Positions 25,975 to 48,546 of a stretch of 64,000 nt of DNA are shown in pieces. This DNA comes from Escherichia virus TH22. Numbering within the stretch: the first letter of the stretch is position 1; every line of letters starts with the position of its first letter. The position numbers and the translations under genes are program-made. Location: sequence record MT446396.1; one strand, written 5' to 3'. Below the pieces are notes generated by a model, which worked only from the letters and a program-made list of their open reading frames with translations, had not been told where the DNA came from and ran no database searches.

Positions 25975-26270
25975 AACGTTTCGAAGAATATGTAGCTACT
26001 AATTGGACCGCATGGGACAAGTTCGGTGATGAATGGTACTTCCATGACTGTGACTTGGACCCGAAATTCTTTGCTGATAAAGAAGAAGACCTTAAAGATA
26101 TCTATGCTCTATCTGAGATTCATGGAATCAAACCGACGGTTTATTTCTCTTTCGATGACACAGGTTTCCTTATTCAGGTTTATGTCCCGTATGCAACCGC
26201 CAGCGATGAAGAAGTTATTAAAACCTGGAACTACCAAGGAGTGATTTCCTGTGGGCCAAAACTCGACTAA
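25971..26270 (+). CDS. hypothetical acidic protein
   Basis: ATGA overlap with upstream gene. Confidence 0.4.
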   Translation: MKRFEEYVATNWTAWDKFGDEWYFHDCDLDPKFFADKEEDLKDIYALSEIHGIKPTVYFSFDDTGFLIQVYVPYATASDEEVIKTWNYQGVISCGPKLD

Positions 26271-26568
26271 GATTGAAATCTATGGTATCCCCGAAGAAGT
26301 CGGTCGATGCCCTGGTTGTATGCACGTCAGGAGCCTTCTGGGCTCCTTAAACCTTCCTTATACATTCTATTCAGTCCTTAACAAACAAGGCTCTGAAATC
26401 GCTTATGACAGGCCTTTAATCGTGTCTTTGGCTAAGCGTGGTGGATATCCTACTCTTAACATTCGTTACCCGGTGATTTTTGTCAATGATGAAAAAATGA
26501 CCAATATTCCTGCCTTTAAAACAAAACTGATATCCCTGGGGTACGACCAGGACTTAATTGAAGATTAA
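26251..26568 (+). CDS. nrdH: glutaredoxin-like protein NrdH
   Basis: CPGC redox motif; GTG start with AAGGAG 9 nt upstream; position next to nrdG. Confidence 0.6.
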   Translation: MGQNSTKIEIYGIPEEVGRCPGCMHVRSLLGSLNLPYTFYSVLNKQGSEIAYDRPLIVSLAKRGGYPTLNIRYPVIFVNDEKMTNIPAFKTKLISLGYDQDLIED

Positions 26569-37299: not shown

Positions 37300-40014
37300 A
37301 TGCAAGAATTTTATTTAACTATCGAACAAATCGGTGACAACCTACTCGAACGATACATTGACAAGAATGGTCATGAACGTGTTCGTGAAATCCCCTATGC
37401 CCCGTGCCTGTTTATGCATGCCCGCGAAGACCAAGCTGCAAAATATACAGACATCTATAATAAAGGTTGCGTGAAAAAAGAATTCGATTCCATGCGTGAT
37501 GCATCCCAGTGGATGAAGCGAATGAATGACATGGGTCTCGAAGCTATGGGTATGGATGACTTTAAACTCGCATACTTGTCCGACCGTTACCCGCACGAAA
37601 TCAAATACGATTCAAGTAAAATCCGTGTGGCTAACTTCGATATCGAGGTGACATCTCCTGATGGGTTCCCTGAGCCGTCTGAAGCACGTCACCCTATTGA
37701 TGCCCTGACGCACTATGATTCGATAGACGATAAATTCTATGTCTTTGACCTTTTGGGCTCACCATACGCCACTGTGGAGCAATGGTCTATCGATATTGCT
37801 GCTAAGCTGCAAGAAGATGGCGGTGATGAAGTCCCTGAAGAAATCCTGGAAAAAATTGTTTATATGGCTTTCGATTCAGAAGAAGAAATGCTCCAACAGT
37901 ATTTGGTATTCTGGAACGAGAAAACTCCGGTTATGTTAACTGGTTGGAACATCGAGAAGTTTGATATTCCATATATCTACAACCGCCTTAAAAATGTATT
38001 TGGTGAAGCTACGGCAAAACGTTTGAGTCCACATCGTCGTACAAAAGTTAAGGTCATTAACAACGGTTTCGGTGAAGAACAAGAAATCGTTCAGATTCTG
38101 GGTATCTCTGTTCTGGATTATCTGGACCTGTATAAAAAGTTCAGCTTCACAAACCAACCGTCTTATTCGTTGGATTATGTTGCGGAATCTGAGCTGGGTG
38201 TTGGTAAACTCCCGTATGATGGCCCGATTTCTAAACTGCGCGAATCAAATCACCAACGGTATATTTCTTATAACATCATCGATGTTTATCGTGTTGTACA
38301 GATTGACCGTAAGCGTCAGTTTATTAACCTTAGCCAGTCAATGGGTTATTATGCAAAAATGCAGATTCAGTCTGTATTCAGCCCAATCAAAACTTGGGAT
38401 GCGATTATCTTTAACAGCCTGAAGACTCAAAATAAAGTCATTCCGGAAACCAAATCACATGTTCGTCAATCGTTCCCAGGTGCATTTGTTAAGGAACCGA
38501 TTCCGAACGCATACAAATACGTTATGAGCTGTGACTTAACATCTCTGTATCCGAGCATCATCCGACAGATTAACATTAGTCCAGAAACGATTGCCGGGTC
38601 ATTTACACCAGCGCCAATGTACGAATACATCGCAGGAACTGCTGACCGTCCATCTGATACATTTAGTTGTGCTCCAAACGGTATGATGTATTTTAAAGAT
38701 GTTGCGGGTATTATTCCAACAGAAGTCACCAAGGTGTTTAATCAGCGTAAAGAGCACAAAGGTTATATGCTTGCGGCTCAACGTAATGGTGAACTGATTA
38801 AGGAAGCCCTGCGTAATCCAGGAACTGGTACAACCGAGCCTGAAGTTGATTATCGTTATGACTTTGATGATAATATGAAAACAACCTTGCATGGTCTGAA
38901 TCAAACAGTTCTGAATGGTATGTTGTACAAAGCGCAGATGGAAGAAGTTGCAGGCATGACCGCACAGATTAACCGTAAACTGCTTATCAACAGTTGTTAT
39001 GGCGCTCTGGGTAATATCTGGTTCCGTTACTTTGACCTGCGAAATGCAACCGCGATTACATCTTTCGGACAACTTACATTGCAGTGGATTGAGCGTAAAG
39101 TTAACGAATATTTTGATAGTGTTTGTGGTACAAGTGGTGAAACATATGTATTCTATGGCGATACTGACTCCATTTATATCCAGTGCGATAACCTGATTAA
39201 AAAGGTTGGTGGCGAATCTAAATTCCGCGATACAAACCACCTGGTTGACTTCATGGACAAGTTTGCGAAAGACCGTCTGGAACCAGCAATCGATAAAGCT
39301 TTCCGTGAGCTGGCTGAATACATGAACAACAAACAGCACCTTATGTTTATGGACCGTGAAGCGATTGCATGTCCTCCGTTGGGTTCTAAAGGTGTTGGTG
39401 GATTCTGGACGGCGAAGAAGCGTTATGCTCTGAACGTGTACGATATGGAAGGCACCCGATATGCTGTTCCGAAACTGAAAATCATGGGTCTGGAAACTCA
39501 AAAGTCGAGTACGCCAAAAGCATGTCAGAAAGCCCTGAAAGAATGTATCCGTCGCATGCTGCAAGAAGGTGAAGAATCTCTGCAGACATACTTCAAGGAA
39601 TTCAATAAGGAATTTAATGAGCTTAACTACATGACAATCGCAGGTGTATCATCGGTTAACAACATCCAGAAATATAATGAGGGTGGTTTCCCTGGATTTA
39701 AGTGTCCGGCTCATATCAAAGGCGTGCTCGCTTACATGCGTGCAACCAAAGGGTTGAAGACTGTTCCACAAATCATGGAAGGGGAAAAGGTGTATGTGCT
39801 TCCTCTTAAAGTTGGTAACCCGTTTGGCGAAACTGTGATTGCATGGCCATCAGGGATTGAACTCCCGATTGAAATTCGTGACCAGGTTCTGCAGTGGATG
39901 GACTACAACACACTGTTCCAGAAGACTTTTGTCAAACCGTTAACGGGGTTCTCTGAAGCAGCAAAGGTTGATTACGAAAAGAAAGCAACTCTTTTTGATA
40001 TGTTTGACTTTTAA
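37300..40014 (+). CDS. 43: DNA polymerase gp43 (family B)
   Basis: 904 aa; exonuclease motifs (FDIEV) and polymerase motifs (SLYPSII, YGDTDS) aligned with T4 gp43. Confidence 0.97.
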   Translation: MQEFYLTIEQIGDNLLERYIDKNGHERVREIPYAPCLFMHAREDQAAKYTDIYNKGCVKKEFDSMRDASQWMKRMNDMGLEAMGMDDFKLAYLSDRYPHEIKYDSSKIRVANFDIEVTSPDGFPEPSEARHPIDALTHYDSIDDKFYVFDLLGSPYATVEQWSIDIAAKLQEDGGDEVPEEILEKIVYMAFDSEEEMLQQYLVFWNEKTPVMLTGWNIEKFDIPYIYNRLKNVFGEATAKRLSPHRRTKVKVINNGFGEEQEIVQILGISVLDYLDLYKKFSFTNQPSYSLDYVAESELGVGKLPYDGPISKLRESNHQRYISYNIIDVYRVVQIDRKRQFINLSQSMGYYAKMQIQSVFSPIKTWDAIIFNSLKTQNKVIPETKSHVRQSFPGAFVKEPIPNAYKYVMSCDLTSLYPSIIRQINISPETIAGSFTPAPMYEYIAGTADRPSDTFSCAPNGMMYFKDVAGIIPTEVTKVFNQRKEHKGYMLAAQRNGELIKEALRNPGTGTTEPEVDYRYDFDDNMKTTLHGLNQTVLNGMLYKAQMEEVAGMTAQINRKLLINSCYGALGNIWFRYFDLRNATAITSFGQLTLQWIERKVNEYFDSVCGTSGETYVFYGDTDSIYIQCDNLIKKVGGESKFRDTNHLVDFMDKFAKDRLEPAIDKAFRELAEYMNNKQHLMFMDREAIACPPLGSKGVGGFWTAKKRYALNVYDMEGTRYAVPKLKIMGLETQKSSTPKACQKALKECIRRMLQEGEESLQTYFKEFNKEFNELNYMTIAGVSSVNNIQKYNEGGFPGFKCPAHIKGVLAYMRATKGLKTVPQIMEGEKVYVLPLKVGNPFGETVIAWPSGIELPIEIRDQVLQWMDYNTLFQKTFVKPLTGFSEAAKVDYEKKATLFDMFDF

Positions 40015-40086
40015 GTGTTTACAACGGCAAAGGATTGCCGTATGATTACTCCATCAACTACTGATGATTAAATTAAGGATATTAAA

Positions 40087-40329
40087 ATGGAAACATTAAT
40101 TGCAGGTACTGTTGTTCTTGGTGCTGGTTCTTTCTTCCTGGCTGCACTGGCATATTTTCTGCCGTGGATTATCGCGCTACTGCGAGGAACCAAAAGTAAT
40201 TGCGGAATCTTCTTTGTTAACCTCCTGTTAGGTTGGACAATGGTCGGGTGGTTTATTGCATTTATCTGGGCACTCGTTGCTGAACGTAAATCAAACGCAC
40301 AAGTAATTATCATCAAGGAAACCAAATGA
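40087..40329 (+). CDS. imm: superinfection immunity protein Imm-like
   Basis: 80-aa two-TM protein with LLGWTMVGWFIAFIWAL segment; directly downstream of gene 43 as in T4. Confidence 0.7.
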   Translation: METLIAGTVVLGAGSFFLAALAYFLPWIIALLRGTKSNCGIFFVNLLLGWTMVGWFIAFIWALVAERKSNAQVIIIKETK

Positions 40330-40469
40330 AGATGATTACAATTATTGTACTGATTGCATTTTTTGGTATGTCAATCTATTGGGCAATAATGACTCCACAT
40401 ATGATTCCAACTTTAATTTTGGGTTGGGTATTTTTGGGGCTCCAAGCCCGCTATGAATGTTTTAATTGA
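40326..40469 (+). CDS. hypothetical small membrane protein
   Basis: 47-aa hydrophobic ORF, ATGA overlap with imm. Confidence 0.4.
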   Translation: MKMITIIVLIAFFGMSIYWAIMTPHMIPTLILGWVFLGLQARYECFN

Positions 40470-40479
40470 GGAAAATACA

Positions 40480-40983
40480 ATGAAAAAGTTAGCTATCGCA
40501 GCTGTTATACTGTTATCTGGTTGTGCTTACCAGGGTGATGTAGTTAATGCCAGTGAGATTGGTAAAGCGCGAATTGCTGCAGACCGTCAGGTGCATAATG
40601 GTTCCTTTGATTTCAAAGGTGGTACTGGACTTATCTACAAACGCGACAACAATCAATGTGGAAATAACTGCGCGAAATATGCTCAACAAGAAATTGAGTA
40701 CAAACGCGAGCAAGCTGCGAAGCATGATGAAGTAATCGCTAAATTAGAAGCAGAAACTAAGCGACAAAATGACTTGGATACTGTTAACCAGATTTCACAG
40801 GTCTGTATGTCATACATCAATATGCAGATAAACATCATGCGCGCGGAAGCTTATCAGGCAGCAGAGGCTGGTTCTCCAAAAGCTAATGAGTATCGCGATA
40901 TGTATCAGCGTTCTGCTCAAAACCGTCTGAGCTATATTAATAAATGTGTAGCTAAAGAGAAAGCACGCCAAGGTATTAACTAA
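40480..40983 (+). CDS. putative lipoprotein
   Basis: Signal peptide with lipobox (MKKLAIAAVILLSGC); SD GAGGAAAAT. Confidence 0.55.
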   Translation: MKKLAIAAVILLSGCAYQGDVVNASEIGKARIAADRQVHNGSFDFKGGTGLIYKRDNNQCGNNCAKYAQQEIEYKREQAAKHDEVIAKLEAETKRQNDLDTVNQISQVCMSYINMQINIMRAEAYQAAEAGSPKANEYRDMYQRSAQNRLSYINKCVAKEKARQGIN

Positions 40984-41068
40984 CATTAATTGCTCTAAAA
41001 ATACAGTGATATAATTATCCTATCTTAAACCTGTGAGAAAAATATAATGGTGCCTATGGAAAAAATGA

Positions 41069-42247
41069 ATGTCTATTGCAGATTTGAAATCCCGTTTGAT
41101 TAAAGCTTCTACATCCAAAATGACTGCGACTCTTACTAAGTCCAAGTTTTTTAATGATAAAGATGTAGTTCGTACAAAAATCCCGATGCTGAACATTGCA
41201 ATCAGCGGTGCACTAGATGGTGGTATGCAGTCAGGTTTGACTATTTTTGCTGGTCCGTCAAAACACTTTAAATCCAATATGGGTTTAACGATGGTCTCTG
41301 CATATATGAACAAATACCCCGATGCAATCTGTTTGTTCTATGATTCAGAATTTGGTATCACAGAAGCATATCTTCGTGCAATGAAAGTTGACCCGGAACG
41401 TGTTATTCACACACCAATCCAGTCGGTTGAACAATTGAAAGTTGATATGGTTAACCAGCTTGAAGCAATTGAGCGTGGTGAAAAAGTCATTATCTTTATT
41501 GACTCAATCGGTAACATGGCGTCTAAAAAAGAAACAGAAGATGCGATGAACGAAAAAGTCGTTGGCGATATGACTCGCGCTAAATCCCTGAAATCTCTAT
41601 TCCGTATTGTTACCCCATATTTTAGTATCAAGGATATCCCTTGTGTCGCGGTTAACCATACAATTGAGACGATTGAGATGTACAGCAAAACCGTTATGAC
41701 CGGTGGTACAGGTGTTATGTATTCTGCAGACACCGTATTCATTATCGGTAAACGTCAGATTAAAGAAACTGGTAAAGAACTTGAAGGTTTCCAATTTGTT
41801 CTGAACGCCGAAAAATCTCGTATGGTCAAAGAGAAAAGTAAATTCTTCATTGATGTAAAATTCGATGGGGGTATTGACCCGTATTCTGGCCTGCTTGATA
41901 TGGCAATGGAAATTGGATTTGTGGTGAAACCGAAAGTTGGTTGGTATAACCGTGAATATCTTGATGTTGAGACCGGTGAAATGGTCCGCGAAGAAAAATC
42001 ATGGCGTGCAAAAGATACTAACTGTACCGAATTCTGGGGTCCATTGTTCAAGCACGAACCTTTCCGTGATGCAATCAAACGACATTACCAGCTGGGTGCA
42101 ATCGATAGCAATGCTGTTGTTGACGCCGAAGTTGATGCGCTTATTGCCTCCAAGGTTGAAAAATACTCTGCCCCTGAAGGTAAGGCAAAACCATCTGCGG
42201 CAGATATCGAAAACGATTTAGATATGATGGAAGACCTTGATGAATGA
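41069..42247 (+). CDS. uvsX: RecA-like recombinase UvsX
   Basis: 392 aa; Walker A GPSKHFKS; strong match to T4 UvsX along full length. Confidence 0.95.
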   Translation: MSIADLKSRLIKASTSKMTATLTKSKFFNDKDVVRTKIPMLNIAISGALDGGMQSGLTIFAGPSKHFKSNMGLTMVSAYMNKYPDAICLFYDSEFGITEAYLRAMKVDPERVIHTPIQSVEQLKVDMVNQLEAIERGEKVIIFIDSIGNMASKKETEDAMNEKVVGDMTRAKSLKSLFRIVTPYFSIKDIPCVAVNHTIETIEMYSKTVMTGGTGVMYSADTVFIIGKRQIKETGKELEGFQFVLNAEKSRMVKEKSKFFIDVKFDGGIDPYSGLLDMAMEIGFVVKPKVGWYNREYLDVETGEMVREEKSWRAKDTNCTEFWGPLFKHEPFRDAIKRHYQLGAIDSNAVVDAEVDALIASKVEKYSAPEGKAKPSAADIENDLDMMEDLDE

Positions 42248-42581
42248 TATCGATTTATCTGATTTAGATAATTTCGAGAAAGATGCGGAGGGAGCTAAGG
42301 CTCCTTCTGTGCCTTACTACGAAAAAAGTTTGGAGATTATCCGGCAATCCATGGGAACCGTACGACAGGAAATTCTGTTATCACTCCCTGATGGGTCCAA
42401 TCACATTGTGTACGTAACCGGAATTAAAATTGAACCATCTGGAAAAGTTTCAGTTGATTTCGGCACCCCTTCTGAAGACCGCAAAGCGGAGCTTGCAGTG
42501 CATGTAGAAAAGTGTGTTACAATGCAAATACAAGATGAAATTGATAAGATTAAAATGAAAAAGAGGTGGTGGAAGTGGTAG
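42237..42581 (+). CDS. hypothetical protein (gene 40 position)
   Basis: ORF between uvsX and gene 41; called by synteny only. Confidence 0.4.
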   Translation: MMNDIDLSDLDNFEKDAEGAKAPSVPYYEKSLEIIRQSMGTVRQEILLSLPDGSNHIVYVTGIKIEPSGKVSVDFGTPSEDRKAELAVHVEKCVTMQIQDEIDKIKMKKRWWKW

Positions 42582-44005
42582 AAACTATTTTATCCCAGCT
42601 ACTCTTTAACAAGGAATATTTTGTTAAAGTCTGGCCATATCTGAATAGCACATATTTTGAAAAGGGTCCCGCGAAGACCCTTTTTAATACGATTAACGAA
42701 CACGTAAAAGAATATCAAGCTGTACCAACTAAGACTGCACTTGATATTGCACTTGACAACTCTGACCTTTCTGAAGTCGAATATGAAGGCACAAAGAAAC
42801 TTTTAGGAGTCCTGGCCGATACTCCAGAAGACCAGGAATGGTTGGTTAGAGAAACCGAAAAGTATGTACAGAAGTCTGCGATGTTCAATGCCACATCCAG
42901 GATTATCGAAATCCAGAGTAATGCCGAACTTCCTAAAGATAAACGTGATAAACGAATCCCGGATATCGGTGCTATCCCTGACATCATGCGTGATGCATTG
43001 TCCATCTGTTTTGATTCTGCCCTTGGTCATGACTGGTTAAACGATTACGAGGCTCGATTCCAGACTTATCTGAACAAATCGAAGAAAGTTCCGTTCCGCA
43101 TTAACATCCTGAATAAAATTACGAAAGGCGGGGTTGAGTACGGTACAGAGAACGTTTTACTAGCCGGGACGAATGTCGGTAAATCTCTGGGGCTTTGTTC
43201 GTTAGCGGCTGACTATCTTCAGACTGGTCATAACGTTCTTTATATAAGCATGGAAATGGCCGAAGAAGTATGTGCCAAACGTATTGATGCCAACTTGCTG
43301 GATGTATCTCTGGATGATATTGATGAAGGTCATATATCATGGGCGGAATATAAAGCTAAGATGGAAAAATGGCGTGCTTCCGGGACTCTCGGGACTCTGA
43401 AGATAAAACAATATCCAACTGGTGGTGCTCATGCGGATACCTTCCGTGCATTACTGAACGAGTACAAACTGAAGCAAGGGTTTGTACCGGATGTGATTAT
43501 TGTTGACTACCTGGCAATCTGTGCAAGCTCAAGACTGAAAACGTTTACCGAAAACAGTTACGGCCTGATTAAGATGGTTGCAGAAGAACTTCGTGGTCTG
43601 GCAGTTGAGAAAAATGTGGTCTTGTGGACTGCAGCGCAGACAACCAGGGGCGCGAACGTTGCAGCCGAGATTGATATGGCTGACATTGCAGAATCCTTTG
43701 GTATTGCTCACACGGCTGACTTTATGCTGGGTGTTGTTGAGACCGAAGAATTCGCTCAAATGGGGCTGCAGTTAATCAAACAGCTTAAGTCTCGTTATGG
43801 TGATAAGAACTACTATAATAAATTCAAGATGGGTGTTAAGAAAGGTAATCAGCGCTGGTATGAGGTTGATGATGATTCGGCTCCTAAACAAGGCCCTACG
43901 GTTAAAGAAGCCACCGGTGAGATGAATCGCCAGGCCGAAATGAATCGACAAACCAGGGTCAACAGGAGCGACCTGGATGACCTTGCTGCTCAAATGAAAT
44001 TTTAA
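42566..44005 (+). CDS. 41: replicative DNA helicase gp41 (DnaB-like)
   Basis: Walker A GTNVGKS; KQLKSRYGDKN; apparent GTG start overlapping upstream gene; matches T4 gp41. Confidence 0.95.
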   Translation: MVEVVETILSQLLFNKEYFVKVWPYLNSTYFEKGPAKTLFNTINEHVKEYQAVPTKTALDIALDNSDLSEVEYEGTKKLLGVLADTPEDQEWLVRETEKYVQKSAMFNATSRIIEIQSNAELPKDKRDKRIPDIGAIPDIMRDALSICFDSALGHDWLNDYEARFQTYLNKSKKVPFRINILNKITKGGVEYGTENVLLAGTNVGKSLGLCSLAADYLQTGHNVLYISMEMAEEVCAKRIDANLLDVSLDDIDEGHISWAEYKAKMEKWRASGTLGTLKIKQYPTGGAHADTFRALLNEYKLKQGFVPDVIIVDYLAICASSRLKTFTENSYGLIKMVAEELRGLAVEKNVVLWTAAQTTRGANVAAEIDMADIAESFGIAHTADFMLGVVETEEFAQMGLQLIKQLKSRYGDKNYYNKFKMGVKKGNQRWYEVDDDSAPKQGPTVKEATGEMNRQAEMNRQTRVNRSDLDDLAAQMKF

Positions 44006-44895: not shown

Positions 44896-45189
44896 ATGAA
44901 AAAGTTATTAATCGCGGCAATTCTTACCGTAGCATCATGTGGTACAGCTCCAGTTACTGCTGGACTTGATAAAAACCTTTGTGAGTGGTCTATGACTGCG
45001 GACCAAACTGATGTTGAAACTCAAATTCGCGCTGACATCATGAATATTACTAAACGTGACCGCCCTGATATGGTTAAAGAAGTATCTGACCAATTGACTT
45101 CTGGTGACGTTATGCAGTATAACTATGTTCTGTATTGCGATGCTTCATTTGACAATAGCAAAATTGTTCAATGGGTTACAGGTGAATAA
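44896..45189 (+). CDS. sp: Spackle periplasmic protein
   Basis: 97 aa with signal peptide; DKNLCEWSMTADQTDVETQIRADIMNITKRDRP...VMQYNYVLYCD matches T4 Sp. Confidence 0.85.
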   Translation: MKKLLIAAILTVASCGTAPVTAGLDKNLCEWSMTADQTDVETQIRADIMNITKRDRPDMVKEVSDQLTSGDVMQYNYVLYCDASFDNSKIVQWVTGE

Positions 45190-48027: not shown

Positions 48028-48546
48028 ATGGCTCATTTTAATGAATGTTCACAACTGATTGCCGGTGTTGATAAAGCTGAAGAAGCTTATGACAATGCAA
48101 TTACAAAAGGTACTGACCCGCTGCAGATTATGCTTGATATGCAGAAATCATTGCAAGTTCGTCTGGCTACTGAAAAACCAGAATATAACTCACATCCAGA
48201 TGAATTGGCTACTGCAGGTGATGTTGTTGCATGGCTTCGTAACCAGAAAGATTATGTCGACGACGAATTCCGTGAACTTCTGACTTCTCTCGGTGGTATG
48301 TCTAATGGCGAGAAAGCTGCATCTAGTGTATGGAAACCATGGAAAGTCCAACATGCTGAATTCCGTAATCGTCGTATTGATGAGTTGTCTCCCGAAGACC
48401 AGCTCGAAATTAAATTTGAGATGATTGATATCCTGCACTTTGTTCTGAACATGTTCCATGGCCTTGGACTGACTGCAGAAGAAATCTTTAAATTGTATTA
48501 CCTGAAAAACGCTGAGAACTTTGCTCGTCAGGACCGGGGTTATTAA
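48028..48546 (+). CDS. 56: dCTPase/dUTPase gp56-like (all-alpha NTP pyrophosphatase)
   Basis: MAHFNEC...DPLQIMLDMQ...ETAGDVVAWLRNQKD...IDILHFVLNMF...IFKLYYLKNAENFARQDRGY closely matches T4 gp56. Confidence 0.9.
   Translation: MAHFNECSQLIAGVDKAEEAYDNAITKGTDPLQIMLDMQKSLQVRLATEKPEYNSHPDELATAGDVVAWLRNQKDYVDDEFRELLTSLGGMSNGEKAASSVWKPWKVQHAEFRNRRIDELSPEDQLEIKFEMIDILHFVLNMFHGLGLTAEEIFKLYYLKNAENFARQDRGY

Follow-up and report, generated by a model that had tools for sequence, protein, structure and literature searches.

Does the lipoprotein gene that follows imm in Escherichia virus TH22 belong to the superinfection exclusion system of T4-like phages, and to which family does its product belong? The question is raised by positions 40087–40983 of a stretch of 64,000 nucleotides (nt) from this phage (sequence record MT446396.1; the window, below, is this whole stretch), in which imm, an open reading frame (ORF) of 47 amino acids (aa), and a gene for a 167-aa lipoprotein follow one another. 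A preliminary description had marked these three ORFs, which we found on the plus strand (Table 1), and had taken the lipoprotein for a candidate second exclusion factor comparable to the phage lipoproteins Llp of T5 and Cor. The region 39800–41300 of the window is 100% identical to the Escherichia phages UPEC07 and TH55, and 93–98% identical to SP18, VR7, VR20, VR26, and other Gaprivervirus (Tevenvirinae); by its sequence, we assign the source to a T4-like Gaprivervirus. We consider it highly probable that the lipoprotein belongs to the Imm.1 family of T4 and sits in the periplasm, and we propose more cautiously that it acts there in response to secondary adsorption.

Profile searches joined the window lipoprotein to T4 Imm.1. 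The profile phrog_1754 matched residues 1–161 of the window protein with positions 2–147 of its 148 (expect value, E, 9.1e-46) and matched T4 Imm.1 over its full length (E 6.1e-43). A profile–profile comparison of the two subfamilies gave E 9e-14 with the signal peptides included and about 1e-6, end to end, with the mature parts only. Once the signal peptides are removed, Cys109 and Cys156 of the window protein align with Cys89 and Cys120 of T4 Imm.1, and two metagenome sequences that carry DUF5481 (P0035 and P0038) bridge the T4-type and window-type subfamilies. The Pfam scan found no match to DUF5481 (PF17578) in the window lipoprotein at E ≤ 1; P0015, a T4-type sequence, scored 234.6 bits on this domain. 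The window protein is best described, from such comparisons, as a relative that has diverged inside the larger PHROG family and not as a strict DUF5481 member. The family is known but uncharacterised, and its links extend to seven or more T4-like genera, further than the Pfam model shows. As for its labels in the databases, the T4 RefSeq record names imm.1 "iduronate sulfatase," apparently by spurious transfer, and many other records call Imm.1 "immunity" without evidence.

The 167-aa lipoprotein starts MKKLAIAAVILLSGC. The ORF list and the annotations of UPEC07 and RZ begin it at ATG 40453, which gives 176 aa and an overlap with the end of the 47-aa ORF. All homologues begin at an MKK or MKL that corresponds to ATG 40480, and a GAGGA lies 7 nt upstream of this codon; for these two reasons, the 167-aa start is preferred and ATG 40480 is likely the true one. 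The length given by the preliminary description was thus borne out, and so was the lipobox (LSGC, with Cys15 in the window protein), which is present in 34 of the 35 members of the family alignment.

The gene was found by tblastn in 124 phage records; among the matches listed, all were T4-like, with hosts in Escherichia, Shigella, Salmonella, Enterobacter, Kosakonia, Serratia, Erwinia, Edwardsiella, Klebsiella, and Pectobacterium. The ratio of nonsynonymous to synonymous substitution rates was 0.055–0.082 against three Gaprivervirus relatives and was similar to that of neighbouring essential genes. It is at least strongly indicated that the gene is real and under purifying selection. It is already annotated as "lipoprotein" in the record of phage EAWsc9, and GenBank holds a 100% identical copy. 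A HMMER search of 1.84 billion representative proteins returned only 28 matches, 26 of them small proteins or fragments of the same family, which shows the family to be narrow. Two other sequences, P0037 (945 aa) and P0039 (542 aa), are repeat proteins that match only through a repeated GGTGL(T/I)Y...N.C hairpin motif, in seven and four stretches; this resemblance is probably coincidental, a convergence of short β-hairpins. Scans of the lipoprotein with Pfam, NCBIfam, and PADLOC gave only sub-threshold noise (FerB, DUF553, and a type VI secretion system immunity lipoprotein profile that met the signal peptide only), and a scan of IMG/VR returned 13 loci, mostly from the same isolate genomes.

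The lipoprotein had also been described as filling the slot in which T4 has gene 42 and beta-gt. The position is right, with the order 43–imm.1–imm–42–beta-gt–segA–uvsX in T4 and 43–imm–47-aa ORF–lipoprotein–uvsX in the window; its reading as an extra gene is misleading, since homologues of the lipoprotein and of the 47-aa ORF alike lie next to imm in T4. The window holds a rearranged version of a conserved group of imm, Y02C, and Imm.1, in an interval that lacks the hmC genes, and the lipoprotein is no newcomer there. No homologue of T4 gene 42 or beta-gt was found anywhere in the 64 kilobases of the window. According to a survey, Gaprivervirus has no known modified-base enzymes and keeps homologues of DenB, Alc, DenA, and dCTPase, and an unidentified modification enzyme was suggested (PMC8056088). 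The UPEC07 annotation has a gp56-like dCTP pyrophosphatase at about window positions 48028–48546.

The two neighbours of the lipoprotein gene were identified in the same way. The product of imm matched the Pfam family Imm_superinfect (PF14373; E 1e-17, 64.2 bits against a cut-off of 27.9) and phrog_1039 (E 2e-30); it is 52% identical to T4 Imm and carries two hydrophobic segments by hydropathy, and we identify it from its sequence as the inner-membrane superinfection immunity protein. The start of the 47-aa ORF overlaps the imm stop codon (ATGA), and its product is almost wholly hydrophobic, as of a membrane protein with two helices. It matched phrog_3610 over its full length (E 1e-26) and, by tblastn against T4, showed 57% identity over 30 aa (E 4e-9) to a 49-aa ORF between imm and gene 42 that is unannotated in NC_000866 (record positions 26227–26376; L004 6228–6377, minus strand). 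A local Pfam scan of the window ORF itself gave no match; in a precomputed table, PF26865 (Phage_T4_Y02C) is assigned to a 47-aa gene that occupies the equivalent position on a metagenome contig, next to a diverged member of the family. Similar ORFs were found in JS98, CIP9, CHI14, PEi20, and ST0, and the window ORF is the homologue of T4 Y02C. In the phages with arabinosyl-type modification (CHI14, PEi20, CIP9, and ST0), the Y02C-like ORF always lies directly 3′ of the arabinose-5-phosphate isomerase gene and before a large nucleoside triphosphate (NTP)-transferase gene, and T4 Y02C lies directly before gene 42; the position of Y02C follows the DNA-modification genes no less closely than it follows imm.

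The location of the lipoprotein was deduced from its conserved residues. The residue at +2 after the lipidated Cys was Ala in 17 sequences, Val in nine, Gln in seven, and His in one, and was never Asp; the window protein has Ala. In Escherichia coli, a residue other than Asp at +2 directs a lipoprotein to the outer membrane, and because of the Ala in the window and the absence of Asp from the family, sorting to the outer membrane is predicted. Tyr53, Cys109, and Cys156 were invariant (35/35). Cys60 and Cys64 were both present in 25 of the 35 sequences, both absent in nine, and split in one. Since they are kept or lost together, as is the case for a disulfide pair, they indicate such a pair and an oxidising compartment, the periplasm; the proposed disulfide geometry comes from conservation only. 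One member, P0034 (135 aa), has an ordinary signal peptide without the lipobox Cys (…MVAFGVNAELMYKGG…). The protein of this lineage may be soluble in the periplasm, and the lipid anchor may not be essential.

Two AlphaFold runs agreed on the topology of the lipoprotein. In the better model (m89f0a5c96504), the mean predicted local distance difference test score was 79.7, with values above 90 for residues 81–160. The model has a flexible tether (residues 16–23), a short helix (24–38), a β-hairpin (41–55, with strands 41–46 and 50–55), and a helix of 69 residues (61–129) that would measure about 10 nm if straight, with two more helices (135–147 and 149–163) folded back on its C-terminal half. 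The predicted shape is a helical rod of about 10 nm on a short tether. Of the mature part, once called coiled-coil-rich, the helical character holds, since it is largely α-helical by prediction; no heptad register stands out. A canonical coiled coil is not supported, the best register having hydrophobic residues at seven of the 20 a/d positions in the long helix. Foldseek found no match to the model in the PDB at E ≤ 0.001, and a fold search of BFVD returned family members only.

To what extent the gene is linked to imm was read from a map of gene order at 30 loci, made by local tblastn; one whole genome, that of CHI14, was scanned for Imm. Tequatrovirus and a relative have the order 43–lipoprotein–imm–Y02C–42, and Gaprivervirus has 43–imm–Y02C–lipoprotein–uvsX. 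Dhakavirus and a distant metagenome relative have 43–imm–Y02C–lipoprotein, followed by the NTP-transferase cluster, and Kanagawavirus, Winklervirus, and phage PM2 have 43–lipoprotein–arabinose-5-phosphate isomerase–Y02C with further genes behind, and no imm. In the Mosigvirus ST0, gene 43 is followed by the isomerase gene, Y02C, and others, and the order Imm.1–Imm–Spackle is found elsewhere, after gene 41 and dmd. In every one of the genera with both genes, four in number (Tequatrovirus, Gaprivervirus, Dhakavirus, and Mosigvirus), the lipoprotein gene is therefore a direct neighbour of imm or has only Y02C in between, and this pairing occurs in three orders and two genome neighbourhoods. In Mosigvirus, the Imm.1 gene has moved away from gene 43 to a place between dmd and imm–sp, and Y02C has stayed; this relocation as Imm.1–Imm–Spackle is the best evidence for a functional link.

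The time of synthesis is available for T4. A time-resolved transcriptome and proteome classed imm.1 (P18057), like sp, as "early RNA, early protein" (PMC9697503, supplement), so that Imm.1 of T4 is made as protein soon after infection. Together with the neighbourhood evidence, this early timing favours a function in exclusion or in protection against secondary adsorption, which we hold to be possible, with reservations. Our best reading, which we offer tentatively, is that of an early outer-membrane lipoprotein acting in the periplasm in response to secondary adsorption. After lipidation at Cys15, the protein would follow the Lol pathway to the inner leaflet of the outer membrane, and its rod would project into the periplasm of the infected cell. 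Its action would fall in the periplasmic stage of secondary adsorption, next to that of Imm in the inner membrane and of Spackle in the periplasm; it might interfere with the tail tip or DNA conduit of the incoming phage, or protect the outer membrane and murein from damage from outside. Such a mode of action would require neither masking of surface receptors nor a strict dependence on Imm.

Several results weigh against a function of this kind. Literature searches on imm.1, DUF5481, PF17578, and Y02C returned nothing on function. The 171-kilobase genome of the Serratia phage CHI14 encodes the lipoprotein, Y02C, and Spackle, and a search of all six of its frames found no Imm (best E 0.34, against 1e-36 for the ST0 positive control); Kanagawavirus and phage PM2 have no imm at this locus. 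Conversely, many phages with Imm, for example Klebsiella and Salmonella phages, gave no lipoprotein match. Lu and Henning are said to have found in 1989 that plasmid-borne T4 imm, by itself, excludes T4, and that immunity disappears when imm is disrupted with imm.1 intact. From these reported results, Imm.1 would be neither necessary nor sufficient for the classical phenotype; if they hold, its part would be no more than accessory, or would concern some other aspect.

The history of the interval points in the same direction. Between the window and VR25, identity is 90–100% as far as the gene 43 stop and returns to this level from 40994 onwards, with only about 72% across 40020–40993; the mosaic borders in VR25 are sharp and lie exactly at the stop of gene 43 and some 75 nt 5′ of uvsX (L020 5617–6501). 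Imm of VR25 is 88.5% identical to that of the Dhakavirus JS98, whereas its lipoprotein is 76.6% identical to that of the window and 45% to that of JS98. Because Imm of VR25 is Dhakavirus-like and its lipoprotein Gaprivervirus-like, the two genes appear to recombine independently and not to be tightly co-adapted. The interval between gene 43 and uvsX is variable with sharp borders, so the adjacency could be partly positional. Two simple forms of the link were rejected: a cassette that moves as one unit, by the separate origins of Imm and the lipoprotein in VR25, and a lipoprotein that needs Imm, by the whole-genome scan of CHI14. Among Gaprivervirus, the divergence of Spackle does not track that of the lipoprotein.

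A serious rival to the proposed function is an envelope-modifying lipoprotein that has nothing to do with superinfection and lies near imm only because the region behind gene 43 collects small non-essential early genes. Its roles might include tuning of the outer membrane or murein, vesiculation, or the timing of lysis to the advantage of the phage itself, or protection against unrelated phages or colicins. The presence of the lipoprotein without Imm in the CHI14 genome and at the Kanagawavirus and PM2 loci agrees with this explanation, as do the mosaic structure of the interval, sharply bordered by the gene 43 stop and the uvsX promoter, the separate histories of the genes inside it, and the DNA-modification genes, homing endonucleases, and tiny ORFs that it also houses in relatives. 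However, position alone can hardly explain how the Imm.1 gene of Mosigvirus came to lie between dmd and imm–sp with Y02C left behind, nor why imm and the lipoprotein gene are next to each other, or one tiny ORF apart, in every one of the four genera that have both. We judge this explanation somewhat unlikely. If it is correct, and there is no role in exclusion, the family would be one more conserved early envelope gene; a practical gain would remain in the corrected start codon, the family link, and the Y02C gene missing from the T4 RefSeq record.

The comparison with Llp and Cor implies a different activity, in which the lipoprotein would bind an outer-membrane receptor from the periplasmic side and block adsorption or DNA entry of the same and related phages. 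An outer-membrane-type lipoprotein, probably early and adjoining a known exclusion gene, could be of this type, and its strong divergence between genera (24–46% identity) is what might be expected if it tracked host surface proteins. Nevertheless, the Cor profile phrog_1119 matched the signal peptide only (residues 1–17, E 0.014), the generic lipoprotein family phrog_890 reached only E 0.049, and there was no specific fold match among solved structures, that of Llp included. The phages T2, T4, and T6 use different receptors, and cells infected with T4 continue to adsorb superinfecting phage, the DNA of which ends in the periplasm. Yet the Imm.1 proteins of T2 and T4 share 98% identity, and identity to T4 Imm.1 reaches 95% or more in 502 of 657 records. 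Such conservation despite different receptors, and the continued adsorption to infected cells known from classical work, leave receptor masking very unlikely, and the analogy drawn by the preliminary description is not supported. An even weaker candidate is a spanin-like lysis pair, in which the lipoprotein would be the outer-membrane half and the 47-aa product its inner-membrane partner, as the order of a small membrane ORF directly followed by a lipoprotein would suggest. That product is almost entirely hydrophobic and has no periplasmic domain to bridge the envelope; moreover, the two genes do not lie together in Kanagawavirus, Winklervirus, and Mosigvirus, T4 makes its homologue as an early and not a late protein, and annotations place the T4-type spanins, pseT.3 and pseT.2, at other sites, as in CHI14. 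An o-spanin would be paired with an i-spanin that has a periplasmic coiled coil and would be expressed late with the lysis genes; the 47-aa product is no such partner, and we regard a spanin as barely credible.

We return to the lipoprotein as an early outer-membrane protein that acts on secondary adsorption. Accounts of superinfection exclusion in T4 usually name two proteins, Imm and Spackle, and to our knowledge, how Imm stops DNA entry is not understood. A further step would be to see in the Imm.1-family lipoproteins an unrecognised third component of T-even superinfection exclusion, which we think unlikely. In that case, the rod anchored in the outer membrane would intercept the tail tip or DNA conduit of the secondary phage in the periplasm, and if true, this would help explain the periplasmic release of excluded DNA and how Imm, in the inner membrane, can influence a process that begins at the outer membrane. 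What is added here, besides the wider reach of the family, is that T4 imm.1 encodes an early lipoprotein with predicted sorting to the outer membrane and that its gene travels with imm and sp in Mosigvirus.

The expression of the three genes in the window was considered from the sequence around them (Table 1). A promoter-like site begins 4 nt past the gene 43 stop and ends 41 nt before imm. The consensus scan gave two sites in the region against 3.5 expected from shuffles, and as this count is not above the shuffles, the site is counted because of its position only. Its −35 element, GTTTACA, we take to resemble those of T4 early promoters. The site is probably, by consensus match only, the early promoter from which imm, the 47-aa ORF, and the lipoprotein gene would be transcribed. 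The three ORFs follow closely on one another, and no convincing terminator was found between them; since the promoter-like site precedes them and no such terminator separates them, they probably form one early transcription unit.

Table 1. Features of the imm–lipoprotein locus and its surroundings (window positions)
Feature	Position	Strand	Evidence
regA	5′ of gene 43	+	
Gene 43, DNA polymerase	37300–40014	+	
Promoter-like site, TTTACA–17 nt–TATGAT	40018–40046	+	Consensus scan, 10/12 consensus matches
imm (80 aa)	40087–40329	+	Pfam PF14373, phrog_1039
47-aa hydrophobic ORF, T4 Y02C homologue	40326–40469	+	phrog_3610
GAGGA, putative ribosome-binding site	40468–40472	+	Read from the sequence; 7 nt 5′ of lipoprotein ATG
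Prolipoprotein, 167 aa (mature 153 aa), Imm.1/phrog_1754 family	40480–40983	+	phrog_1754 profile match
Signal peptide and lipobox L-S-G-C (Cys15 codon 40522–40524)	40480–40524	+	Lipobox kept across the family
β-Hairpin motif GGTGLIY (Tyr53), then QCGNNC with Cys60/Cys64	40600–40671	+	AlphaFold strands and alignment
Predicted helical rod with Cys109 (40804–40806) and Cys156 (40945–40947)	40660–40968	+	AlphaFold and alignment
uvsX	41069–42247	+	
Gene 40	42237–42581	+	
Gene 41	42566–44005	+	
spackle (sp), the window's own copy	44896–45186	+	

Two observations concern the DNA between the lipoprotein gene and uvsX. Upstream of uvsX, positions 40989–41014 (ATTGCTCTA, 12 nt, TATAAT) resemble a T4 middle promoter with a MotA box and a −10 element; this stretch is 97–100% conserved with VR25, unlike the cassette just before it. 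Several Gaprivervirus (RZ, TH40, MN01, VR7, VR26, and others) have an extra 140–260 base pairs between the two genes that are absent from the window. In phage RZ, the extra segment (L003 2684–2947, equivalent to about 40984–40993 of the window) encodes two hydrophobic ORFs of 35 and 42 aa.

The closest known relative is T4 Imm.1 (P18057, DUF5481/PF17578), which has 125–126 aa against 167 aa in the window and shares about 24–32% identity with it. The lipobox is LAGC in T4 and LSGC in the window, and behind the Cys both have the motif G-x-V-V-x-x-S/E-V/I-G-K (GPVVNQSDVGK in T4 and GDVVNASEIGK in the window). Also common to both are the invariant Tyr and the two invariant Cys in the helical C-terminal part, and a gene beside imm in the interval from gene 43 to gene 42 or uvsX. 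The window protein differs in its GGTGLxY hairpin, its CxxxC pair, and a longer helical rod, and its gene lies 3′ of imm and Y02C, whereas that of T4 lies 5′ of imm.

In shape only, the lipoprotein is comparable to Braun's lipoprotein, Lpp: both are outer-membrane lipoproteins, the window protein by prediction, whose mature part is mainly a long α-helix of about 8–10 nm directed towards the murein. No homology to Lpp was detected, and the window protein has no clear heptad register and no C-terminal Lys for attachment to murein. Unlike Lpp, it has, in the model, two helices folded back, and its fold is apparently stabilised by disulfides. Llp of T5 and Cor of phi80, N15, and T1 are phage lipoproteins that block receptors; the window protein resembles them as a lipoprotein encoded by a phage, predicted to face the periplasm from the outer membrane and possibly with a role against superinfection. 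It has no similarity to them beyond the signal peptide, is a helical rod by prediction, and is conserved independently of receptor specificity; it is presumably about 2–3 times larger. The systems nearest to it in setting are Imm and Spackle. Spackle (gp61.3) is a soluble periplasmic inhibitor of the gp5 lysozyme (PMC7677548). Like both of these proteins, the window lipoprotein would be an early envelope protein, and its gene lies beside imm in four genera and beside imm and sp in Mosigvirus; it differs from them in being lipid-anchored, with no similarity to the soluble Spackle or to Imm, an integral protein of the inner membrane.

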